Source: Candidatus Saccharimonadales bacterium (GTDB lineage: Bacteria; Patescibacteriota; Saccharimonadia; QS-5-54-17). From it: 64,000 nt of DNA. The stretch covers positions 599,633-663,632 of the forward strand of contig JBBDUI010000002.1 in NCBI GenBank assembly GCA_040903985.1. The letters are read 5' to 3'. Both the position numbers and the translations under genes were made by a program. The notes below the pieces were generated by a model. That model had not been told where the DNA came from. It made no database searches and saw nothing but the letters and a program-made list of their open reading frames with translations. Positions 7,990-20,039 of the stretch are shown one piece after another (position 1 is the stretch's first letter; each line of letters opens with the position of its first letter).

Positions 7990-8065
7990 GCGGGTGTAGC
8001 TCAGTTGATAGAGCGCGTCCTTGCCAAGGACGAGGCCACGAGTTTGAGTCTCGTCACCCGCACCA
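7990..8065 (+). tRNA. tRNA-Gly (anticodon GCC).
   Basis: Acceptor GCGGGTG/CACCCGC. Anticodon arm CGTCC-TTGCCAA-GGACG. T-arm ACGAG-TTTGAGT-CTCGT. CCA is encoded. Confidence 0.85.
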
Positions 8066-9580
8066 AAGTTGAGTTTTAGCGCCGTCAGGCGCTTTTTCTT
8101 TTTCCTCAATTACCAAGTTAAAAGGGTAATTCACGGTATATGACAAGTTTTTATCGTTCAGTTTAAGGTTAGAAACTAGGAATCCTAAGAGCTTGGAACG
8201 CTGCCCCTCATCTGCAAGCTGAAACAGCTCTGAAACTCGACTTACTAAATCTAACAGATATGAAGCGGTTACTAAGAAGTCCTTATTCCCTCTGGTTAGA
8301 ACATTTAGCCTATCATTGAGCTGTTGCTGTCTATTTGTTAATGTCTCTACAATTTTATCGTGTTGTTCTGGTGATATTTTTTCATCTACTAGTTTTTCAA
8401 ACCACATTTCAATTTTTTTGTCGATTGAATCATATTCCTCTCGAACTGATAGTAACGACTGTGAGTAATATTTTTGTTGGTCGTCGTGGTTATCTTTTAG
8501 TTCTTTAATAACTTTGTTTAATAGCTTTTCCGGAATATTTATCCTTTTTACAAGAGCTTCCATAGAGCCTAGTACGAGCGATTCTGCGGTGTTGGGGTTG
8601 CTACACTTAGAATTTGCACACTTGAGGTACACCCAACGTTTACACTGGAACGGGGAAATAGTACGACCACACTTACCGCAGCTTAGAATATCGCTAAAAT
8701 TGAAGTTTAGACTATCCCATTTGGTTTTCATTGATTTGCGCTTGTCTTTAATGAGCTGACACCTATTAAACAAGGCTCGGTCTATTAATGGTGCGTAATT
8801 ATGAGGGTAATCTTTTCCTTTCTGAGTCATCATTCCGTAATAAAACTTATTATTAATTATAGCTTCGACAGCCCCTTTGGATAGGGTAGTTTTACCAGTT
8901 TTACTGCTCGTAAAACCAGCTTTTGCTAATTCTTTAGCGATAAGGCTGTACGGCATTCCTATTGCCCTTAGCTCAAACGCTTTTACAATGTAATGCGCTC
9001 TTTGCTCATCGACCACAATATCTTTTAATGGCTTGTTGGGATTACTAGTAGGTATAGATATGTTTTGATATCCTATTGGCGCCCTGTGAACCCATATACC
9101 ATCATTTAACATCTGTTCAAAACGACGCTTTACATTGTCTCGGCTTGAATCGGAATAGTACTTAGCAAGCAGCATTCCTATACCAAGCCTGAATAAGTCT
9201 GTGGCTGGCGAACTAGATGATATGAATAAATTGTCTGATGGAAAATGTAGTTCTATTTTATCTTTTTCCACGAGCTGTCCCATTATTCTCACTTCTCTCT
9301 GTGAGGCGTCACGAGTAAAACGGTCTATTTTATCAAAGACAATTATCGCCTGTTCATTCAAAGACTGGATTTCATCTTCAATCAAAGAAGCGAATTTTTG
9401 CCTGGCGTCCTTGTAGGCACTTTCATCGAACTCATGGTATCGCCATTCTTTGTCTTTATAGTTCAAAGTTCTAGCATAGTTTTCAAGCCGTTGCTTCTGT
9501 GCGGGTAACGCTTTACGTTGCTGCACGTCCGATACCCTAGCGATTAATAGAATTGGTTTTTTATTGGTAGTAGCATTCAT
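8054..9580 (-). CDS. Large serine recombinase (integrase). Its stop codon overlaps the tRNA-Gly 3' end.
   Basis: N-terminal resolvase domain (ILLIARVSD catalytic Ser). Recombinase domain. C-terminal zinc ribbon CGKCGRTISPFQC...CANSKC. 508 aa. Confidence 0.85.
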   Translation of the reverse strand: MNATTNKKPILLIARVSDVQQRKALPAQKQRLENYARTLNYKDKEWRYHEFDESAYKDARQKFASLIEDEIQSLNEQAIIVFDKIDRFTRDASQREVRIMGQLVEKDKIELHFPSDNLFISSSSPATDLFRLGIGMLLAKYYSDSSRDNVKRRFEQMLNDGIWVHRAPIGYQNISIPTSNPNKPLKDIVVDEQRAHYIVKAFELRAIGMPYSLIAKELAKAGFTSSKTGKTTLSKGAVEAIINNKFYYGMMTQKGKDYPHNYAPLIDRALFNRCQLIKDKRKSMKTKWDSLNFNFSDILSCGKCGRTISPFQCKRWVYLKCANSKCSNPNTAESLVLGSMEALVKRINIPEKLLNKVIKELKDNHDDQQKYYSQSLLSVREEYDSIDKKIEMWFEKLVDEKISPEQHDKIVETLTNRQQQLNDRLNVLTRGNKDFLVTASYLLDLVSRVSELFQLADEGQRSKLLGFLVSNLKLNDKNLSYTVNYPFNLVIEEKEKAPDGAKTQLWCG

Positions 9581-9747
9581 GATTATATCCTTTACAAATA
9601 TATTATATTGTTATTTAGTAGTATTTTCTATCGTTTTAGCTTTAGCCTTTTGAGCTAGGTCTATTTGAATGAGTACATCTAGAAATCCTGCAAGGTTCTT
9701 TAAGTCTTTAGGAGTTTCTGTAGATGGATTGTTGGGTTGTTTGGGGG

Positions 9748-10275
9748 TTACCATTTGAAACCCCCGTAATGTGTCGAGAAAATATCCGCAATATTATTCT
9801 CAGTATTTTTTAATTTTGGTCTTTTTAGAACTTCATATTCTTTACTGGTCACTATTGAAGCAGGTACACTCCTCAATTTGTTCTGGTAATCTCCTTGTTT
9901 TCGAGGTAGCTGTGTACAAACTTTTTGGTGTTCGTACAGTTTTATGACACAAGGTATTAGGTCGTATGTGTTAGAAGTTCCTCGCTTATGTCTGCGTTTA
10001 ACGAACTGTTTTTCTTCCAGTTTTCTCAATCGTCTTTGAACGGTTGAATAACCTTTGTGAGAGAACTTGCATAGCCGAGTAATTGACGGGTATACCCGAC
10101 TATTGTGGCTGAACCAAAATGTTAGCAAGTGTATCAGTGTTAATGTCTCACCGTCTGTTAGCCCAAGATGACCCTGGCAAGCTAACAGTAAGTTTGGTAC
10201 CTGAGTGAAGTTAAACTCCTCTATTTCAGGTGACCATTTCTCTGAAAAACCGTATTCCTTGTTATTGGTTTTCAT
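9748..10275 (-). CDS. Winged-helix DNA-binding protein (replication-initiator or regulator-like), island-borne.
   Basis: FTQVPNLLLAC...LTDGETLTLIHLLTF...GYSTVQRRLRKLEEKQFVKR resembles wHTH replication or regulatory proteins of mobile elements. Confidence 0.4.
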   Translation of the reverse strand: MKTNNKEYGFSEKWSPEIEEFNFTQVPNLLLACQGHLGLTDGETLTLIHLLTFWFSHNSRVYPSITRLCKFSHKGYSTVQRRLRKLEEKQFVKRRHKRGTSNTYDLIPCVIKLYEHQKVCTQLPRKQGDYQNKLRSVPASIVTSKEYEVLKRPKLKNTENNIADIFSTHYGGFKW

Positions 10276-10425
10276 CGTATTTTCCTTTGCGATGAAGCCA
10301 GCCCAACGGAACGGTTGTTATTGGTGTTGGGTGGCTTCGTTGCCGTTCCAAACACCACTTTAGACATTAAAAAAGGAGCTGTAATAAAGCTCCTAAATTA
10401 CTCGATTTTAGTCGGTTTTAACTTC

Positions 10426-11283
10426 TTAGGTTGGTAATATTTCTCGGTTTGTTACGGTTTCGTCACGGTTAGATTTTAGCCATTTTTCGAACCACTCAAG
10501 TTGTTCTCCGCTTATCTCTTTCCAAGGGGTGAACCTTATTGTTTTCTGTGTAGTTCTTTCAAAAAATATCTTCTTTAACTCTCTATTGAAGTGGCAGTTT
10601 CTAACAAGTTCACTCAAATCGGTTTTCGTTTTACAGCCTTCAACTTTTTCTTGTATCTCGTGAATGCTTATCGGTCTATCATGATTTTTAAGAATATAAC
10701 GCATGAAGTTATACGGTGGGCTGTCGTATCTGAGTGGCTTGCCAAGTATTACATTTGCCCCTTCGATTAAATCAATACTTGCATACCTAAGTCCGACAGT
10801 TATTAAGTTATTTCGTAAATCAATAAAAATAATTTCTGACCTGTTTTTCTTGGTTTGGGTAGATTTATGTTTTTTATCAGTAAGGACGCTGTCGTGGTAC
10901 TGGTATTTTTCCAAATCTTTCTTTCTAGCTTTGTTTCTCACTGACTCAAAATTGTCCAGAATATTAACTTTATAATTTCTCAAAGACTTCATTTTTCCAA
11001 AAAGATAGTGATAGTCTACGTCAAGAATATCTGCCTTAAACGTTGGGTTGTTCAATGATATAGATCCATCATCTTCTAACTTTTTATTTGGCTTGGTGTA
11101 GGAGTACTTAATACATTCATAATCATCTTGTAATGCGTCTAGAATATATTTCTGGTCTTCAAGTCGTACACCCGCAACGTCCAAGTCCTCTGAGCTGAAA
11201 GATACCTTGTTACCCGATAATGATTCTTGCAGGAACCTATCAATCAGGTTGATTGCGATTAATATTTTTTCACGACCAGTCAT
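10426..11283 (-). CDS. Hypothetical protein (285 aa), island-borne. Possibly Abi-like.
   Basis: ORF only. AT-rich codon usage matches the island. No motif recognised. Confidence 0.35.
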   Translation of the reverse strand: MTGREKILIAINLIDRFLQESLSGNKVSFSSEDLDVAGVRLEDQKYILDALQDDYECIKYSYTKPNKKLEDDGSISLNNPTFKADILDVDYHYLFGKMKSLRNYKVNILDNFESVRNKARKKDLEKYQYHDSVLTDKKHKSTQTKKNRSEIIFIDLRNNLITVGLRYASIDLIEGANVILGKPLRYDSPPYNFMRYILKNHDRPISIHEIQEKVEGCKTKTDLSELVRNCHFNRELKKIFFERTTQKTIRFTPWKEISGEQLEWFEKWLKSNRDETVTNREILPT

Positions 11284-11349
11284 TAGTGTAAATTATACTC
11301 TATAATCCCATTCCTCACTGTTCCGCTCTTAGTTTTTGAATTTTTATTA

Positions 11350-11841
11350 CTAATGAAAACTAGTCGTGTAATGTACGAAAACCACTCGTTTGAGTGATGA
11401 GTTTGGGTGTCTGTCTGCAAAGTCTTCAACAGCTTTTTGAGCTATCATAATCACGTCTTCGTATGGATTGCCGTGTAAGCCTGAGCCTAACGCAGGAAAA
11501 GCCATGGACTCTACACCATAGTCATCTGCAAGTTCTAACGAAGTATAAAAGCACTTATAGAGTATCTTTGGCTCTTTACCTTTATGGTAGCCGTATATAG
11601 GCGCAACTGTGTGTATGACGTATTGAGCTGGTAAGTCGTAGGCTTCGGTAATCTTTGCTTCGCCATAATCACAGCCACCAAGTTCTTTACAGGCATTTGC
11701 TAGTTCGGGTCCTGCGATTGAATGGATTTTACTGTCTACACCACCGCCAGGAATGAGCTGAGTGTTGGCTGCATTCACGATAATATCTGCATGGAGTTTT
11801 GTTATATCCCAATTCATTTCTTCTAGTCTTAATGTACGCAT
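11350..11841 (-). CDS. Stand-alone macro domain protein (ADP-ribose binding or hydrolase).
   Basis: IVNAANTQLIPGGGVDSKIHSIAGPEL and GLHGNPYE motifs are canonical macro-domain signatures. Confidence 0.8.
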   Translation of the reverse strand: MRTLRLEEMNWDITKLHADIIVNAANTQLIPGGGVDSKIHSIAGPELANACKELGGCDYGEAKITEAYDLPAQYVIHTVAPIYGYHKGKEPKILYKCFYTSLELADDYGVESMAFPALGSGLHGNPYEDVIMIAQKAVEDFADRHPNSSLKRVVFVHYTTSFH

Positions 11842-11842
11842 T

Positions 11843-12085
11843 CTAGTATTCGTTCCTCATGGCATTAATAAAATCTAGTAATGCTGGTTTACGGTTCATG
11901 CCATATTTTTTGTTGAGTTCTTTAGTTTTGGCGATAGTTGCTTCGTTAATACGATATATTACTGGTTGAGCGAGCTGTTTGGCAGTTTCTCTATCTATTT
12001 CGCCCGTCCTATATTTGTGTTGAATAGTAGCGATATCAGCTCTGTTTTTGACTGCTTGCTCAATGTTCTTTTCCATACTTCGCAT
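11843..12085 (-). CDS. Small hypothetical protein (80 aa) ending 1 nt upstream of the macro gene start. Possible partner (toxin or regulator).
   Basis: ORF with 1-nt spacing to the macro gene. No motif. Confidence 0.35.
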   Translation of the reverse strand: MRSMEKNIEQAVKNRADIATIQHKYRTGEIDRETAKQLAQPVIYRINEATIAKTKELNKKYGMNRKPALLDFINAMRNEY

Positions 12086-12212
12086 TCTGTATAGAAAATT
12101 AGAGGAATGCGAGCCGTAAAGTAGCCTTTCTGAGCTATTCTCAGCCTCTCTACGCTGTGTTTAGTGCAGATTAATAACTATGGACTATAAACAGAGGTGT
12201 TTATAGCGTACA

Positions 12213-15200
12213 ATGTTGCATAATATGGCTAGTCTATTTGGTAAAAACAAACTTCGTGATATAGCGACAAAACTACAAACTTCTGACTTAGAAGATAAAA
12301 TTGCAATCGTTAAAACTTGGCACAATGATTATCACAAAGGTAGCTTAAAAGCAGATAAAGAAACTTCCCGCGAGCAAGCCTACAATCATGACTTTTTCAT
12401 AAAGATTTTAGGTTATAAAGAAAAACCTACAGTGCCGTATAGCTTTGAGCCAAAAGCTACTACTGATAAAGGTCAACTCCCTGACGCTGTTCTTAGCCAC
12501 ACTGACGTAACACAAGACATCAAGAATATTGCAGCTGTAGTGGAATTAAAGGGTGCAAGTATTGAGTTAGACAGACCACAACGGCGTGAGGGCAACATGA
12601 GTCCTGTGCAACAGGGGTTCAAGTACAAGACTCAGTATAGAAACTGTCCATTTGTGGTTGTCAGTAACTTTTGGGAGTTCAGGCTATACCACGACAATCA
12701 ACTTGATTATGAGCTATGGACACTCGATGACTTAGTTGACCCTGATGACGACTATCTCAAGTTCAAGACTTTCTACACACTTCTCCACAGTGATAACCTC
12801 ACAACACCAAAGGGAGCAAGCAAGACAGAGGGCTGGCTCAGTGATATACGTTATGAGCAGGAAGAAATCGGAAAGAAATTCTACAAGATGTACCGAGAAG
12901 CTCGTCTCGATCTGCTAAGAGACATTTACAGGCACAATCAAACTGTACGTTCAGATATTGATATGGGTATAGAAAAAGCCCAAAAGATTATTGACCGCAT
13001 AGTATTTGCCTGTTTCGCAGAGGACCGAGGCTTGCTTCCAGACAATACCTTGCAACGAGTTATTCAAGCTGCCGATAAGTCAGCGTTTGGTGGTTCGCTC
13101 TGGTCAACCTTCAAAGCGTTCTTTGAAGCAATTGATGTTGGTAGCGAAAAACTAGAAATACCAGACGGCTACAACGGTGGCTTATTTGCACATGATCCGA
13201 CTCTTAACGCCCTCAAAGTAAGTGATGAGCCACTACGAAAAGTAGCAAACATCAGTAACTACAACTTTGAGGAAGATTTAAGCGTTACGATTCTTGGCCA
13301 TATCTTTGAACAGTCTATTAGTGACCTAGAAGAAATCAAAAGCAAAGTCGAAGAAACTAAAAGCCTAGATTCTTTTCAGCAGTCACGAAGAAAAAAAGAC
13401 GGCATTTTCTATACTCCTGACTACATAGTGCGTTATATCGTTGATAATTCACTCGGTGCTTACTTGCGAGGTGAAGAAGAACGTCTAAAGTCTGAGTTTA
13501 AGCTCAAGGGCGACATTACAGACAAAAATTATGAAAAGAGAGAACGCCAAGCATACAGTAAGTATCAAGAATTTTTACAGAATGTAAAAGTCGTTGACCC
13601 TGCTTGTGGCTCAGGTGCATTTTTGGTTTATGTTTTTGATTATCTACTTGCAGAAAATAAACGTGTAGCAAGTATTCTCGGCAATAACTTGTTTAGTAGT
13701 GAGGATTACATAAAATCAATCCTACAGAACAATATTTATGGTGTTGACCTCAATGATGAATCGGTTGAGATTACTAAACTATCGCTTTGGCTTAAATCTG
13801 CTCAAAAAGGCAAAAAACTCACAACACTGGACAACAACATCAAATGTGGCAACAGTTTAATTGATGACTCGGAAGTTGCTGGCGATAAGGCGTTTGTGTG
13901 GGAAAAAGAATTTCCTGAAATCTTTGCCAAAGGTGGCTTTGATATAGTTGTCGGAAACCCCCCATGGGTGTTCACTCGTGAAGGTGGTTTTACGCAAGGC
14001 TCAAAAGATTTTATAAGTGCGTACATAGAAAATAAAAGCATTACTACTGAGTCCCGCGGTCTTAATATCCAAAAAGGCAAAATTAATCTATATGCAGTGT
14101 TTATCGCTAAGGGCTTAGACCTTCTTACGAAAGGCGGTGTACTTTCATACATTGTCCCGAATAGCATACTTCGAGCTACGCCTTATGAGGCGTTTCGAAA
14201 GTATTTACTCGATAACTTTGCCATTAAACAGATAGTTAATCTTGGAGCAGGTATATTCAGTGGAGTTACTGCTTCATCAGTCATATTGTCCATTGGAAGA
14301 AAAGAAGGCATATCTAGTAACTACGAAACAGAAATCATTATAGACATACAAAATCCAAATGAAAAATCTAGGCTAGAGCAAAATAACTTCTCGAACAACG
14401 CCAGTTACGTTTTTAACATACTCGCAAAAAAGGAAGAAGTAACGTTAACAACAAAAATACTATCAAATCATATCGTTCTAGGGAATATAGCAAAATTTAT
14501 TTCGCCAGGTATTGACGGTGATAAGTCTAAATATGTTAGTAAAGAACGGCTGAGTGATGATTATAAGCCATTATTATTTGGTAAATCATTCGGTAGGTAT
14601 ACGATCAATTTTGATAATAACTACATTCTCTATGACAGGTCAAAATTGAATAGGGCGAGAAAAGAAGAAATCTTCACATCAGACAAAATCATTATACAAA
14701 GAATAAGCGGCGGACTTAATCCTTTAAGATGTACGCTTGATGTAGAACAGTTCTATACGTTCAACTCAGTCAATAACGTCATACTTAAAGATGACAGTGG
14801 CGTTTCAGCTCATTATGTACTGGCGCTACTGAACTCAAGGCTGCTCAACTGGTACTATTCAACTAACTTCTCTAACAAATCAACTCTTACGGTAAATATA
14901 TCCAAGACTTTTCTTGAAAAGCTACCGATAGCAATAGGGTTAAAAGGTGAGCAGGACTCTTTAGAGAAATTGACCAAGAAAATACTTAGCTTATACAGTA
15001 AGCAAGACCAGGTTTTGACTCGTATAGAGAAAGTCATTTTGTCAGAATATCAAATAGAAAAATGGCCGACTAAACTCAATAAATGGTGGTTAATCGACTT
15101 TGCTACTTTCGTAAAAACACTCAAGATAACCCTCACGCTTTCACAAAAAGATGAATTGATGATACTTTACGAAAAATATCGCAAAGAGTTACTGGCGCTT

Positions 15201-15308
15201 GAGCAAGAAATCAAAAACACTGATTATGAAATCAACCAGTCTGTCTATTCACTGTACGGTTTAACAAATGAAGAAATTGAAATTATTGATAAGCAAACAA
15301 ATGAATAA
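12213..15308 (+). CDS. Type IIG/IIL single-chain restriction-modification enzyme (MmeI/Eco57I-like): N-terminal PD-(D/E)xK nuclease, gamma-class N6-adenine MTase, C-terminal TRD.
   Basis: N-terminal LPDAV...VVELKG (PD..ExK). MTase motif I VVDPACGSGAFLV and motif IV VVGNPPWVF. 1031 aa. Confidence 0.8.
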   Translation: MLHNMASLFGKNKLRDIATKLQTSDLEDKIAIVKTWHNDYHKGSLKADKETSREQAYNHDFFIKILGYKEKPTVPYSFEPKATTDKGQLPDAVLSHTDVTQDIKNIAAVVELKGASIELDRPQRREGNMSPVQQGFKYKTQYRNCPFVVVSNFWEFRLYHDNQLDYELWTLDDLVDPDDDYLKFKTFYTLLHSDNLTTPKGASKTEGWLSDIRYEQEEIGKKFYKMYREARLDLLRDIYRHNQTVRSDIDMGIEKAQKIIDRIVFACFAEDRGLLPDNTLQRVIQAADKSAFGGSLWSTFKAFFEAIDVGSEKLEIPDGYNGGLFAHDPTLNALKVSDEPLRKVANISNYNFEEDLSVTILGHIFEQSISDLEEIKSKVEETKSLDSFQQSRRKKDGIFYTPDYIVRYIVDNSLGAYLRGEEERLKSEFKLKGDITDKNYEKRERQAYSKYQEFLQNVKVVDPACGSGAFLVYVFDYLLAENKRVASILGNNLFSSEDYIKSILQNNIYGVDLNDESVEITKLSLWLKSAQKGKKLTTLDNNIKCGNSLIDDSEVAGDKAFVWEKEFPEIFAKGGFDIVVGNPPWVFTREGGFTQGSKDFISAYIENKSITTESRGLNIQKGKINLYAVFIAKGLDLLTKGGVLSYIVPNSILRATPYEAFRKYLLDNFAIKQIVNLGAGIFSGVTASSVILSIGRKEGISSNYETEIIIDIQNPNEKSRLEQNNFSNNASYVFNILAKKEEVTLTTKILSNHIVLGNIAKFISPGIDGDKSKYVSKERLSDDYKPLLFGKSFGRYTINFDNNYILYDRSKLNRARKEEIFTSDKIIIQRISGGLNPLRCTLDVEQFYTFNSVNNVILKDDSGVSAHYVLALLNSRLLNWYYSTNFSNKSTLTVNISKTFLEKLPIAIGLKGEQDSLEKLTKKILSLYSKQDQVLTRIEKVILSEYQIEKWPTKLNKWWLIDFATFVKTLKITLTLSQKDELMILYEKYRKELLALEQEIKNTDYEINQSVYSLYGLTNEEIEIIDKQTNE

Positions 15309-16023
15309 GGCCAACGATAACTTAAAAAACAATAAGCTAGACTGGACGGCTATAGTAACAAAAGCGAGCTTAGGCGCTGTCCCTATTGCAGGTAGTTTTT
15401 TAGCGGAGATTGTAGGAACGTTAATCCCTAATCAACGAATCGAAAGAATCGCTGAGTACGTTACAGAACTTAATAATAAGCTAGAGACTATCCCTGAACA
15501 TGTAGTAAAGAGATTAAGGAATAACGAAGAATTTATTGATTTAGTTGAGGAGAGTATTATTCGGGTCGCCCGCTCAATATCAGAAGAAAGACGCAAATAC
15601 ATTTTGAATATCGTTCAAAATGGTATTTCAGATGATGACTCAACTGTTAATAACGCAAAATATCTTTTGAGACTGTTATCAGAGATAAACGACAATGAAG
15701 TAATCTGGCTTCGTTATTTTCACGAGCGGACACTAAACGATAAGGCTCATTTTCAAGCATTGCACAAAAATATTCTTTCACCCGTACAAGTTGTACTAGG
15801 GTCTAGTAAAGAGGAACGCCAACGAGGGGCAGTTCAGGAAAGCTACAAAGAACATCTGGAACGACTTGGCTTAATTGAAAATAATATCAAAATGAACAAA
15901 GACCTTGGTGTGCCAGAATATGATACATTCACTAATAAGCCAAAGGTGTCATATACTCAGACCACAACATTGGGTAACATGCTCTTAGAGAAGATTGGTT
16001 TAATAAATAATGCAGCAAAATAG
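15301..16023 (+). CDS. Hypothetical protein (240 aa), translationally coupled to the RM gene (ATG 15301 overlaps RM stop 15306-15308).
   Basis: The track ORF 15268..16023 has an in-frame Met at 15301 that overlaps the RM stop. No motif recognised. Confidence 0.45.
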   Translation: MNKANDNLKNNKLDWTAIVTKASLGAVPIAGSFLAEIVGTLIPNQRIERIAEYVTELNNKLETIPEHVVKRLRNNEEFIDLVEESIIRVARSISEERRKYILNIVQNGISDDDSTVNNAKYLLRLLSEINDNEVIWLRYFHERTLNDKAHFQALHKNILSPVQVVLGSSKEERQRGAVQESYKEHLERLGLIENNIKMNKDLGVPEYDTFTNKPKVSYTQTTTLGNMLLEKIGLINNAAK

Positions 16024-16777
16024 TTTCAAACAAGTCGCATACGACATTCTAAAAGAAGCCGGTAACCCACTCCACAGTAAGGAGATTACTAAATTAGCAC
16101 TCCAACGAGGATTGCTAGTAACAGACGGCAAAACACCAGAGGCAACCATGAACGCTCAGCTAGTGGTTGATATTAATAAAAAAGGTATCAAATCAAAGTT
16201 TATCAAAACAGCCCCTTCAACATTTTATTTGAACGATAATTCTGAACCCATTGAAACAAAAGAAGAAATAGCAGAAGAAGCTAAAAAAGAAGCTGTCATC
16301 TCAAACGTATCATCAAAGCAGAAAGGCGATATTGCTGAGGCTAGAGTTGCCGAACTTATCACCCTCTACGGTGATAATGAGGTGTCTTGTTTCAAGCCAA
16401 TTTCCGATGACGAAGGAATTGACTTAATTGTAAAGCCTAAGGGGCAATTGAAATCACTGTATATTCAAATCAAGTCACGATTTGGCAGTAACCCAAGTGA
16501 AATATTCACCGCTACTGTCAAAGCCTCAGGGGTAGTAGAAAATTATTCAATGGTCTACTTGTTTTGCTACTTTGATACTTCAACTGGCGATATGTGGGAC
16601 TATGTATGGCTTGTCCCTGCACCAGACTTCAAACGGCTAGCGAACAATCTTCAAGGCGGTAGTTTGTATGGATTTGTAGCAGGTAGGAAAAAATCGGACA
16701 GTAATAAATGGGACCAGTATCTCATACACAAAACCGACTTATCGGAGTCAATAATTAATCAACTTTCAAGACTGTAG
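16010..16777 (+). CDS. HARE-HTH domain fused to a PD-(D/E)xK-type endonuclease domain (restriction-endonuclease-like).
   Basis: N-terminus FKQVAYDILKEAGNPLHSKEITKLALQRGL...KTPEATMNAQL matches the HARE-HTH pattern. C-terminus D-EGIDLIVKPK...IQIKSR is a D..E.D..K nuclease core. Confidence 0.55.
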   Translation: MQQNSFKQVAYDILKEAGNPLHSKEITKLALQRGLLVTDGKTPEATMNAQLVVDINKKGIKSKFIKTAPSTFYLNDNSEPIETKEEIAEEAKKEAVISNVSSKQKGDIAEARVAELITLYGDNEVSCFKPISDDEGIDLIVKPKGQLKSLYIQIKSRFGSNPSEIFTATVKASGVVENYSMVYLFCYFDTSTGDMWDYVWLVPAPDFKRLANNLQGGSLYGFVAGRKKSDSNKWDQYLIHKTDLSESIINQLSRL

Positions 16778-16788
16778 ATTTGTAAATT

Positions 16789-18261
16789 ATGTACCTGTCT
16801 AAATCTGACTTCCTAAAATATCAATGTTGTCCAAGTTATCTATGGCTATGGAAATACAAAAAAGAAGTCGTACCCGTAGATGATGAGGAAGCAATTAATC
16901 AGCGACTAGAACAAGGTAATGAAGTTGAGCGTTTTGCTCGTGGCTTATTTCCTAACGCTGTTCTGGTTGGTTCTTACGGTAAGAAGGCTCGTAACGAAAC
17001 CGAGAGGCTTGTAAGTAATGATGTGCAAGCAATATTCCAAGCTACTGTTTATACAGACAAAGAATTATTGGCAATGGCAGATATTATTGAATTTGATGAA
17101 GCCACGCAATCTTGGGATTTGTACGAAGTAAAATCTACCAACTCTGTTAAAAAAGAACATATATATGACCTTGCTTTTCAGCGAGTGGCATTTGAAGACG
17201 CTGGCTATAAAATTGGTAAGGTAATTGTCATTCATTTAGATAAAACTTACGTTCGCAAAACAGCAGTAGAGCCATCTGAACTTTTAACGCAAACCGATGT
17301 TACAGAAAAGGTTGAAAAAATACTACCAACAATACGGCAACAAGCCTATGACGCTATTGAAGTATTAAAACAAAACGATGAGCCAAAAAAGTGTAGTTGT
17401 AGACTTAAAACTCGTTCAGGACACTGCTCGACATTTAATTATCTTAATCCCGATATTCCTGAGTATTCTGTTTTTAATATTTCAAGAATAGGTGCTAAGA
17501 ATCTGGCAGTACTTGTAGATGGAGACATTCATAACGTACATGATGTACCAGAGGACATAAAACTTTCTATTGGTCAGAAAAATCAAGTACTGGTGGCTAG
17601 GAGTAAAGAGCCGATTATAAACAGGCCAGCTATTCAAGAATTGTTAAGCGAACTTGAATTTCCTCTTTATTTCCTAGACTACGAAACCGTTTCATCGGCC
17701 TTACCAATGTTTAATGGCTGTACACCATTCCAACAAATACCGTTCCAGTATTCTTTACACGTTCTGAGAGAGCCTGACGGCGAACTTGAGCATTATGAGT
17801 ATCTTGGGCGTGATAGCACCAATCCACCAATGCCAGAGCTACTCGCAAGCCTACAGAACAATATCGGAGATACAGGTAGCGTTATTGTTTGGTATAAAGT
17901 CTTTGAAACAGGACGCAACACAGAAATGGGTAAAGCATTCCCTGAATACGCGGAGTTCCTTGAGGGCATAAATAATAGAGTGTTTGATCTAATGGACATA
18001 TTCAGTAAACAGCATTATGTACACCACGATTTCAAAGGCAGTAGCTCAATCAAATATGTGTTACCAGTCCTTGTGCCTGAGTTCTCATACAAGGAAATGG
18101 ATATACAGAACGGATTAGTCGCTTCAATACGGTGGTATGACGCCGTTATGGGTGCAGTAGACGAAGAACAAGCCCAAAAGACTTACGAAGCACTCTTGAA
18201 GTACTGCTGTTTAGATACTTTGGCAATGGTTAAGATTTACGAATACTTAAAGAAACTATAA
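16789..18261 (+). CDS. Cas4-like / RecB-family PD-(D/E)xK nuclease with Fe-S cysteines, fused to a C-terminal domain of unknown function (DUF2779-like).
   Basis: N-terminal YQCCPSYLW. MADIIEFDE...LYEVKS (D..E.K). C-x-C-x8-C cluster CSCRLKTRSGHC. 490 aa. Confidence 0.55.
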   Translation: MYLSKSDFLKYQCCPSYLWLWKYKKEVVPVDDEEAINQRLEQGNEVERFARGLFPNAVLVGSYGKKARNETERLVSNDVQAIFQATVYTDKELLAMADIIEFDEATQSWDLYEVKSTNSVKKEHIYDLAFQRVAFEDAGYKIGKVIVIHLDKTYVRKTAVEPSELLTQTDVTEKVEKILPTIRQQAYDAIEVLKQNDEPKKCSCRLKTRSGHCSTFNYLNPDIPEYSVFNISRIGAKNLAVLVDGDIHNVHDVPEDIKLSIGQKNQVLVARSKEPIINRPAIQELLSELEFPLYFLDYETVSSALPMFNGCTPFQQIPFQYSLHVLREPDGELEHYEYLGRDSTNPPMPELLASLQNNIGDTGSVIVWYKVFETGRNTEMGKAFPEYAEFLEGINNRVFDLMDIFSKQHYVHHDFKGSSSIKYVLPVLVPEFSYKEMDIQNGLVASIRWYDAVMGAVDEEQAQKTYEALLKYCCLDTLAMVKIYEYLKKL

Positions 18262-18311
18262 GTTAAACGTAAGCAATATAGTTATCAACCAAACAACGAT
18301 ACAATAATCTT

Positions 18312-19787
18312 ATGGTTGCAAATCAACAAAAAGGAAAACAACTAATAACTCTCAATGAGCATATTGGTGTACCTGTAGAAAAACTTGAAGAACTGGGTAT
18401 CCTAAACGCAATAATCGGCATAGATACTAAATTATTCATTGACCCTAAGTTGATAAATGTTACTGATATACCTGAACTTGATAATGTTGTAGAGGACATT
18501 CGTGCCTATGTTCGTAAACTGATATCTGTAAATAATCAGGCAGCAAAATCCGAACGTATTAGACAGATTGCAATAAAGATGATTGCCATTGAAGAACCAA
18601 AAGGTCTATCAATCGGTTACGGAAACAGCAGGGATAGTGGTACTTCCATTTCAGAAAGTGTGGCAAGGAAATCACTGCAATCATTATCTGAAATGATTTC
18701 AATCGGTGTAGAAGACCTTGAAGTTATGGAAATGCTAGGACTGTTTATAAGCAGATTCGGAGCTGACAGCATTAGTGATTTAATATCACACATCATTTAT
18801 CCCCGACTTTGTGCGTATACCCAAAGAGTCTCAAAAGAACTTGGTATAAAGGTTAAGGTATTTGAAATAAACGAAGCAAAGTATAACCTACCTGCACACC
18901 CCAAAAAAGATACTCCGCTTATTTTTGTTCCATTAGTGATATTGAGCGAACTTCCATTGGCGACTAGTTGGGAAGAAATTGCAGTTGCCGCCCAGTTAAA
19001 CGAAAAATGCAGACAAGCCTTTAACGACTTAGTCGGAGCCGATATTGCAAATTACGCAAAAAAGATTAAGAAGAACCCAGCACTTGTTACTGGTTCAATT
19101 GAAGCAATGAAAACCCTTATAGCCATCTATGACGAAGCTGTTGTAAGACCATATGATAGACAAAAAGACCCCGCTGGATACGTTCGTCTAAGCAAATTCG
19201 CGGCACAACTTAACGACAAGCTGCAATCACCAAACACGGTTATTAAAAATACAAACGAAATGGTTGAGTTTATTGACGGACAAGTAATAGACCAGTTTCG
19301 TCGTAATATTGAAAAACTAGGAGCTAACACCTTGCTGTACCACCGAAAAGGTGAATCTCCTGATTATTTGAAGCCAGTCAGAGAAGACGCTGCACAGATT
19401 ATTTTCCATACAGCTGCTGACCACATCTGTCAAAATAACGACATTTTGGTAAGTAGGGAGCCAGCGGTTGGTAATGGTGCTGTGGATTTCACAATTGGTC
19501 AAGGTTCTAGCAATAAGGCGGTCGTTGAAATTAAAAAATCAAACAATAAGAACCTGATTGACGGATATAATTTACAATTACAAGAGTATGTGGAACGAGA
19601 GAAAGCGGCTATCGCATTCTATGTAGTTGTATTAGTAACTCAAGCAAGTGTGGATAACAAAGATTCACAGTTGAACGAACTTAAAAAAATGTATGCTTCT
19701 AAATTACGCAAAAAAGAACAATGCCCAAGATTAGTAATTATTAATGGTCTTGAACAATTAAGCCCAAGTAAGATGAGGAGCAATTAA
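18312..19787 (+). CDS. Hypothetical 491-aa protein with a C-terminal PD-(D/E)xK-like motif.
   Basis: GNGAVDFTIGQGSSNKAVVEIKKS (D-x13-E-x-K) near the C-terminus. The rest is unrecognised. Confidence 0.4.
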   Translation: MVANQQKGKQLITLNEHIGVPVEKLEELGILNAIIGIDTKLFIDPKLINVTDIPELDNVVEDIRAYVRKLISVNNQAAKSERIRQIAIKMIAIEEPKGLSIGYGNSRDSGTSISESVARKSLQSLSEMISIGVEDLEVMEMLGLFISRFGADSISDLISHIIYPRLCAYTQRVSKELGIKVKVFEINEAKYNLPAHPKKDTPLIFVPLVILSELPLATSWEEIAVAAQLNEKCRQAFNDLVGADIANYAKKIKKNPALVTGSIEAMKTLIAIYDEAVVRPYDRQKDPAGYVRLSKFAAQLNDKLQSPNTVIKNTNEMVEFIDGQVIDQFRRNIEKLGANTLLYHRKGESPDYLKPVREDAAQIIFHTAADHICQNNDILVSREPAVGNGAVDFTIGQGSSNKAVVEIKKSNNKNLIDGYNLQLQEYVEREKAAIAFYVVVLVTQASVDNKDSQLNELKKMYASKLRKKEQCPRLVIINGLEQLSPSKMRSN

Positions 19788-20039
19788 CTAAGTAATCAAA
19801 TCTGCCGACAGATTAAATTGCCTTACTAAATCCTGTAACTTATAATTGTCTACATTGCCTTGGTTAGCGGTTAGAAATACACCAGCTATCCGGCACCAAA
19901 TGCTTAATTATCAAACTATGAACAAACCCTGACTACTTTATTGAAGCTGAGTATGGACAATAACCCTAGACTGCACAGTTGCGCCATCAACCATAACCGC
20001 TGTAGAGTATGGATATAACAAACGGTAGTAAAACATTCT

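Follow-up and report, generated by a model that had tools for sequence, protein, structure and literature searches.

The gene pair

Within a 64,000-nucleotide stretch of DNA from a Candidatus Saccharimonadales bacterium (assembly GCA_040903985.1, contig JBBDUI010000002.1, positions 599,633 to 663,632; this whole stretch is called the window), two short neighbouring genes lie in a mobile island. One is an open reading frame (ORF) of about 80 amino acids (aa), hereafter the small ORF, and the other encodes a stand-alone macro domain (Table 1). The initial annotation had placed them next to each other inside an island, one nucleotide (nt) apart and in the orientation of a recombinase, and this description was accurate: coordinates, strands and lengths agree, both genes share the strand of the large serine recombinase gene at 8054-9580, and they are part of a block of low G+C content (GC) at a tRNA-Gly gene.

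Read on the minus strand, the sequence across the junction is ...AAT GAA TAC TAG A ATG CGT..., with exactly 1 nt between the stop codon of the small ORF (TAG, 11843-11845) and the ATG of the macro gene (11839-11841). A GAGGA motif is located inside the small ORF, 12-17 nt 5' of the macro ATG. A simple promoter and terminator scan found no terminator between the two genes and no excess of signals over shuffled sequences, and Rfam gave no match in the gene pair or its leader. Given the 1-nt gap, the lack of an intervening terminator and the GAGGA motif in front of the macro ATG, the two genes appear to be co-transcribed.

Is such a short ORF a gene at all? It is a genuine and constrained one, because it has 29 homologous protein clusters (61-100% identity, the identical match being an annotated protein of a Candidatus Saccharimonadales metagenome-assembled genome, MAG), because an exhaustive profile search of 1.84 billion representative sequences matched 85 clusters in all, nearly all of them stand-alone proteins of 51-114 aa, and because its ratio of nonsynonymous to synonymous substitution rates (dN/dS) is low. 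Between the window and the related locus L025 this ratio is 0.16 for the small ORF and 0.13 for the macro gene, a measure usable for the closest pairs only, most pairs being saturated at synonymous sites. Both genes are under purifying selection. In an alignment of the 29 homologues nearly all start at the second ATG of the window ORF (M4, position 12076), as does the protein annotated at NCBI (P0001, 77 aa); the true start is therefore probably M4, and the predicted product has 77 aa.

Table 1. Features of the island and its flank, in window coordinates (L numbers denote related loci).
Feature	Position	Strand	Description	Basis
tRNA-Gly(GCC)	7990-8065	+	integration site, left island border	Rfam tRNA 69.3 bits; ARAGORN; GC step
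Large serine recombinase	8054-9580	-	508 aa	Pfam Resolvase 5.6e-13, Recombinase 4.2e-11
47-aa ORF	9611-9754	-	directly upstream of the recombinase gene	50-59% identity to 44-aa ORFs of L028 and L017
DnaD_N/HTH_36 protein	9748-10275	-	175 aa, replication-initiator-like, backbone	Pfam HTH_36 4.6e-9, DnaD_N 2.3e-7
285-aa protein	10426-11283	-	backbone	conserved C-terminal ~100 aa; weak WH_Rok and Trans_reg_C matches
Macro domain ORF	11350-11841	-	163 aa	ORF listing and Pfam
Small ORF	11843-12085 (from M4: 11843-12076)	-	80 aa from the first ATG (77 aa from M4)	
Divergent intergenic region	12077-12212	.	between small ORF and type IIG restriction-modification gene	upstream alignments and sequence
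Cargo operon	12213-19787	+	divergent from small ORF	Pfam and PADLOC scans; low GC to ~19950
Type IIG restriction-modification enzyme	12213-15308	+	cargo	

A conserved gene and the variable slot behind it

How closely are the two genes bound to each other? To answer this from the genomic record, 37 related loci were collected, L001-L024 through the small ORF and the others by routes that included the macro gene. In those of the loci L001-L024 that extend far enough, the small ORF is the first gene of a module that leads to a same-strand serine recombinase, and a variable cargo lies divergent from it; this cargo includes a type IIG restriction-modification (RM) system in eight loci, a type III RM system in L004 and a DUF2326/MC6/CTD10 system in L005-L007. 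In L028-L030, unlike in most loci, the cargo is co-directional with the small ORF.

The position directly behind the small ORF is where these elements vary. When small ORFs were clustered at 95% identity, 25 lineages resulted: five carry a co-directional macro gene in this slot, one a convergent macro gene and two an ADP-ribosylglycohydrolase (ARH), and 17 have neither a macro nor an ARH gene or could not be assigned (one contig ends at the small ORF, and one is a frameshifted phage-like copy), counts that are biased in that the macro loci were retrieved with the macro protein itself as query. In the lineages without an eraser of ADP-ribose, the slot holds other genes or nothing. The small ORF is thus a conserved backbone gene, and the macro gene is an accessory gene in a variable slot.

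Seen from the side of the macro gene, the association is much tighter. The initial annotation had made its pairing depend on conservation in other genomes, and in this direction it held: the five closest macro clusters checked (77, 66, 63, 59 and 49% identity) all abut a homologue of the small ORF, and indeed all the element-borne macro genes checked touch it. The four closest follow the small ORF by 1-4 nt or overlap it, and each is followed by a gene for a protein of 244-289 aa. The elements that carry them differ in cargo, and their recombinases are as little as 22% identical (L025 versus the window).

The macro gene at 49% identity is arranged differently. In L036 (4130-6097) and L037 (445-2412) it is the last gene of an operon on the opposite strand (HI_0787_N, a 64-aa gene, a 105-aa gene and the macro gene, the last two overlapping by 10 nt), and this operon converges on the 3' end of the small ORF. 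The same HI_0787_N/64-aa/105-aa operon occurs without the macro gene in L008-L012, L016 and L020.

An unrelated eraser occupies the slot elsewhere. In L021 (283-1187) a full-length ADP-ribosylglycohydrolase (PF03747, E=1.2e-60, profile positions 1-281 of 287) starts 0-2 nt after the stop codon of the small ORF, and in L004 (6236-6688) the C-terminal half of an ARH alone lies 1 nt behind it. The presence in one slot of macro and ARH, two unrelated folds that both remove ADP-ribose, argues that the activity itself is selected there. In L032, the closest macro-less relative, no macro remnant was found, so that gain and loss of the macro gene cannot be told apart at that locus.

The small protein

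The small ORF has no Pfam and no NCBIfam family. A phage family, phrog_10302, does match the entire protein (E=1.3e-7; profile positions 4-62 of 63), and the same family is hit by 32 of 33 distant relatives. A model built with AlphaFold2 (AF2) from 29 sequences has a predicted local distance difference test score (pLDDT) of 92 and shows long helices at residues 2-26 and 32-61 and a short one at the C terminus; as modelled, the small protein is a helical hairpin with no enzymatic fold. A Foldseek search of the model against the PDB gave no match below E=1.8 and returned generic helical hairpins only, and comparison of the protein profile with PDB sequences gave nothing meaningful.

Where else is this protein found? 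A close alignment of the small ORF used as query gave no match among the viral contigs of IMG/VR. Among GenBank phages there are distant relatives, in temperate Firmicutes phages that carry no macro gene: gp37 of phiFL3A (Enterococcus, L041) and gp78 of B054 (Listeria, L042), of 60-65 aa and ending in LMR, both lie directly after the gene of a DNA adenine methyltransferase with a ParB domain, and in phiFL3A terminase genes are found downstream. In Geobacillus GR1 the relative sits in a different context. Compared with the phage family, the proteins from Saccharimonadia have about 12 additional aa, carry a KTKELNKKY insertion and end in an MRNxY tail, and they head the backbone operon of an integrative island, whereas those of phiFL3A and B054 follow the ParB-methyltransferase gene. 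In the islands of Saccharimonadia the small ORF is mostly divergent from RM cargo, and a link of the whole family to DNA methyltransferases is possible.

Some variations within the family can be added. In L032 (468-614) a separate, overlapping 48-aa ORF behind the small ORF contains the motif S/R-R-F-x-x-x-D/E-x-D-x-x-I-T/I, and the same motif forms a C-terminal extension fused to several homologues of the small protein (P0006, P0166, P0167 and P0176). Downstream of the small ORF of the phage-like contig L024 there is, on our own reading, an ORF that resembles a terminase gene. The element family is found almost entirely in Saccharimonadia. In L013 and L023 the order is small ORF, a 92-aa protein, a 153-aa protein and a serine recombinase, in a MAG labelled Candidatus Limnocylindria (Chloroflexota); the L013 occurrence may be a binning error or may point to a presence outside Saccharimonadia.

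These data bear directly on the possibility that the small ORF is a new kind of toxin and the macro protein its antitoxin, the partnership that the initial annotation had raised for the pair. The tight operonic arrangement, its conservation in five lineages and the established role of macro domains as antitoxins in DarTG all speak in its favour. Yet the small ORF is a backbone gene that lacks a macro or ARH neighbour in the 17 lineages counted above (those that could not be assigned included) and in the temperate Firmicutes phages, without any obligate co-occurrence, and a toxin that depended on the macro protein for its control would not persist alone in so many lineages. In addition, the macro protein is not of the DarG type, and a helical hairpin devoid of an enzymatic fold would be unable to create the ADP-ribose marks that a macro domain removes. 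A toxin-antitoxin pair is very unlikely on these grounds, and the result removes the 80-aa ORF as a false lead towards a new toxin.

The macro protein

The 163-aa protein contains a single macro domain at residues 22-133, and its assignment is unambiguous: Pfam Macro (PF01661) is matched with E=1.3e-35 and 122.3 bits, against a cut-off of 22, over profile positions 1-117 of 118. The motifs IVNAAN, GGGVD and HSIAGP, from which a canonical macro domain had been recognised in the initial annotation, are all found in the translation. Among solved structures, human MACROD2 (2.9e-35) and MACROD1 and YmdB of E. coli come closest, ahead of the TARG1/DarG, PARG and macroH2A clades, and the top NCBIfam match is the O-acetyl-ADP-ribose deacetylase family, with 155.7 bits and under the equivalog cut-off of 200.

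Residues known from MACROD1 and MACROD2 to take part in catalysis are an Asn, an Asp and a His (N174, D184 and H188 in MACROD1). N26, D36 and H40 of the window protein align with them, so that the catalytic residues, whose loss would have spoken against the initial annotation, are retained; G121 aligns with the glycine of loop 2. Two local features deviate: loop 2 reads GSGLHG, with His123 in place of the usual Tyr, and Pro31 precedes the GGG loop. Among macro relatives the loop-2 Tyr position varies between His, Phe and Tyr.

Judged by its sequence, the protein is of the MacroD/YmdB type and not of the DarG or TARG1 type. It shares with MACROD1/2, YmdB and SCO6450 of S. coelicolor a full-length match (E from 2.9e-35 to 2.1e-30), the single domain of about 160-180 aa, the NAAN...GGGVD..IH motif and a glycine-rich loop 2; it differs from them in lying on a mobile island and not among chromosomal housekeeping genes, in the loop-2 His and Pro31 and in its score below the equivalog cut-off. 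Its predicted activity would be that of an ADP-ribosylhydrolase or of an enzyme like O-acetyl-ADP-ribose deacetylase.

What is known of such enzymes narrows the range of substrates. MacroD-type and ARH-like enzymes remove ADP-ribose from phosphate ends of RNA and DNA (PMC11833690); removal of ADP-ribose linked to thymidine in DNA, by contrast, is the work of TARG1 and DarG, a function in which other hydrolases are not redundant (PMC8501950). By analogy, mono-ADP-ribose on acidic residues of proteins, phosphate-end ADP-ribose on DNA or RNA, and O-acetyl-ADP-ribose are likely substrate classes for the window protein, and base adducts of the DarT type would be unlikely ones.

The search for a source of ADP-ribose in the island

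Does the island encode an enzyme that writes ADP-ribose marks? Pfam and PADLOC scans of the island proteins found no ADP-ribosyltransferase (ART), so that the ART-fold gene which the initial annotation had suggested looking for elsewhere in the island did not turn up; the same scans found no SIR2 and no TIR domain.

Two more specific candidates were examined and rejected. The first was the 285-aa neighbour as a hidden ART: it has no ART match in Pfam, PADLOC or NCBIfam, the best fold match of its AF2 model is not significant (E=0.44) with the weak ones being winged-helix proteins, and it is also present in elements without a macro gene. The second was the macro protein as a DarG. NCBIfam antitoxin_DarG gives 13.9 bits against a cut-off of 250, and PADLOC DarG gives E=0.009 and 13.5 bits; at 163 aa and with one domain, the protein is without the C-terminal DarT-binding domain of the two-domain DarG (about 330 aa). 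No darT gene is adjacent, the neighbours being the 77-aa helical protein and the 285-aa protein without ART signal. The likeness to DarTG is therefore limited to a macro hydrolase in a conflict-related genomic setting, as against the negligible DarG profile match, the missing DarT-binding domain and the missing darT neighbour. The initial annotation had offered two roles for the macro protein, antitoxin or anti-defence factor. A DarG-type antitoxin fails on these scores and on the lack of DarT nearby, and the stand-alone eraser is still the best reading.

Could the macro protein instead protect against the island's own cargo, by neutralising collateral ADP-ribosylation or NAD-derived products of an effector encoded there? 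Several poorly characterised, defence-like cargo genes, such as those for the Abi_alpha-like and PDC-M36A-like proteins, leave some room for this. However, the macro-bearing elements have no cargo gene in common (a type IIG RM system in the window, type III RM in L025, type III-like RM and GmrSD in L028, C5 methylases in L035), the island shows no ART, SIR2 or TIR domain, and the macro gene belongs to the backbone operon and not to the cargo operon. Self-immunity of this kind is accordingly a highly improbable explanation.

A proposed orphan eraser of ADP-ribose

Stand-alone erasers on mobile DNA have precedents. AdfN, an orphan ADP-ribosylglycohydrolase of the NADAR family, acts in the counter-defence of T4-like phages (PMC11825919), and AdfM, a DarG2-like macro protein of PhiKZ, is an orphan eraser with a counter-defence function as well (PMC13309987). 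The gene in the window resembles them in that it encodes a predicted stand-alone hydrolase on a mobile element for which no cognate transferase was found, which is what marks an orphan eraser, and the same logic may be proposed for it, namely a response to ADP-ribosylation imposed by the recipient. It differs from them in carrier, a Patescibacteria integrative island and not a lytic phage, and in its clade: as a MacroD-type and not a DarG/TARG1-like protein, it would be unlikely to act on thymidine- or guanine-linked adducts (PMC8501950, PMC11833690).

A second group of precedents concerns immunity. ARH-type immunity proteins against ADP-ribosylating effectors are known, for example Tri1 against Tre1. 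Likewise, PARG is an immunity enzyme against RhsP2 (PMC11833690). The likeness lies in an eraser that protects against the ART toxins of other cells, and an ARH does occur in the same slot in the sister elements L021 and L004; the window protein differs in fold, and no cognate or nearby toxin was found for it.

Against this background, we give about an even chance to the view that the macro protein is an accessory orphan eraser of ADP-ribose, which serves counter-defence or immunity and works independently of the small protein. The ADP-ribose that it would remove by hydrolysis would have been attached by enzymes encoded elsewhere, in the recipient cell or in a competitor. The element or its host would thereby be protected, in the sense of counter-defence or of orphan immunity; the small protein would not be what it neutralises. 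The location of its gene in the backbone operon, beside the replication and integration genes and not in the cargo operon, suggests that it serves the element itself. Both the biological target and the role in counter-defence are what we infer from the combined data.

Several observations weigh against the orphan eraser, and they deserve to be set out together. For Saccharimonadia, the present analysis documents neither a defence system nor a toxin that ADP-ribosylates. The loci L001-L024, retrieved via the small ORF alone (tblastn), contain no macro gene, and the lineage counts carry the retrieval bias already mentioned. The catalytic Asp of GGGVD is replaced by Ser in two element-borne sister proteins, P0033 (L026) and P0034 (L028); these replacements and the loop-2 His of the window protein may mean that its activity is altered. 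Among the relatives P0037-P0043, the chromosomal Saccharimonadales proteins have Cys at the same position. Macro proteins about 50% identical are encoded in Saccharimonadales outside elements, beside methyltransferase and acetyltransferase genes (P0042, for instance, is a 50%-identical protein in an unrelated context), which makes a captured housekeeping gene plausible. Finally, that two different erasers both follow the small ORF within 0-4 nt could reflect a functional link to the small protein.

The captured housekeeping gene is the alternative that needs the most careful treatment. It would be a passenger, a MacroD/YmdB-like hydrolase of O-acetyl-ADP-ribose or ADP-ribose-1''-phosphate engaged in metabolic clean-up without any role in conflict, and its place behind the small ORF would merely reflect the one permissive insertion slot in the backbone. 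That the best family matches are O-acetyl-ADP-ribose deacetylases, that the genes of relatives with about 50% identity are located outside elements, and that the slot holds unrelated genes too, all fit this scenario. On the other side, the macro gene is kept under purifying selection in at least five element lineages with differing cargo and recombinases, it arrived in the slot a second time in the convergent arrangement, and the unrelated ARH was recruited to the same place; such repeated recruitment of erasers is hard to explain by chance hitch-hiking. We regard the housekeeping origin without a conflict role as unlikely, albeit deserving of attention.

The other alternative takes the coupling to the small ORF at face value: the 77-aa protein would be a regulator, an adaptor or a target of ADP-ribosylation that is modulated by the eraser behind it, and the eraser would be optional according to the host background. 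Macro and ARH are each joined to the stop codon of the small ORF by 0-4 nt or by an overlap, every element-borne macro gene checked touches the small ORF, and in L036 and L037 the macro gene abuts its 3' end even when convergent. Even so, the slot is the sole variable position of the backbone and adjacency may be purely positional, an eraser is absent (or its presence could not be assigned) in 17 of the 25 lineages, and in none of the 85 family clusters is the small domain joined to a macro, ARH or ART domain. A functional module of this sort is improbable in our estimation.

A bolder version of the orphan eraser can also be formulated, in which the slot is a dedicated counter-defence slot of Saccharimonadia islands, to which macro genes (in two orientations) and ARH genes were recruited independently. 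We put it forward tentatively, as a doubtful possibility. If it were true, mobile DNA would meet a major barrier in these episymbionts in the form of ADP-ribosylation, perhaps of nucleic-acid ends, and the small helical protein might serve the slot as its regulator or co-factor.

Why does the question matter? Stand-alone ADP-ribosylhydrolases on mobile elements were already known, and the window gene adds one from a poorly studied host lineage, in a slot on which macro and ARH genes converged. If the orphan eraser is real, the strategy of carrying one's own remover of ADP-ribose would reach beyond AdfN and AdfM of lytic Proteobacteria phages and include the integrative defence islands of Patescibacteria, a group whose mobile-element biology is barely known, and it would point to ADP-ribosylating immunity or toxins in this lineage. 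The analysis also defines an island family, recognisable by its serine recombinase, its conserved first gene of 77 aa, the variable slot and the divergent defence cargo; searches for defence and counter-defence genes in Saccharimonadia could make use of these features.

The region upstream of the small ORF

The divergent intergenic region contains a block (12077-12140) whose conservation in front of small-ORF homologues does not depend on their cargo. Its form in the window is GGCTCGCATTCC...TATACAGAAT-7 nt-ATG, and in most loci examined (L001-L036) it reads GCCTTGAGC.ATCTCT.....GGACAATATATT, followed by 7 nt and the ATG; it is not evident in L026, L028 and L033. The block resembles TTGAGC-17-TATATT and ends 7 nt before the start codon. 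This arrangement suggests a putative promoter, from which a near-leaderless mRNA would follow. The block is less pronounced in the window, where the simple promoter scan did not pick it up.

On the other side of the region, a perfect 8-bp inverted repeat at 12186-12205, TATAAACA-GAGG-TGTTTATA, ends 7 nt before the start of the type IIG RM gene. The GAGG in its loop is likely the Shine-Dalgarno sequence of that gene. The repeat is not conserved in related loci with the same RM family.

The island and its other genes

The small ORF and the macro gene are the first two genes of the backbone, transcribed on the minus strand in the order small ORF, macro gene, 285-aa protein, DnaD-like protein, 47-aa ORF and recombinase. 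The 285-aa protein has only seven homologues, in elements with and without a macro gene; its AF2 model has a pLDDT of 73, and its C-terminal ~100 aa probably form a winged-helix DNA-binding domain. The 175-aa DnaD-like protein also matches PHROG families of replication initiation, and the 47-aa ORF is conserved across related elements. Besides the type IIG RM enzyme, the cargo comprises the Abi_alpha-like protein, a HARE-HTH/PD-(D/E)XK protein, a DUF2779/Cas4-like protein and the PDC-M36A-like protein.

All of these genes belong to a mobile island of about 12 kb, roughly 8050-19950, that is integrated at the tRNA-Gly gene. The last codons of the recombinase gene overlap the 3' end of this tRNA gene, and GC drops from 0.45-0.55 to 0.35-0.40 between about 8000 and 20000; the integration is concluded from this overlap and this step. 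The far border was placed by GC content, and no direct repeat of the tRNA 3' end was found there, an absence that is expected for serine recombinases.

A different target was seen in three of the related loci, L004, L034 and L035, where the 3' end of the serine recombinase gene overlaps the start of a gene for a YchF-type GTPase. The element family thus integrates at no fewer than two kinds of site, one being tRNA-Gly and another the 5' end of ychF.

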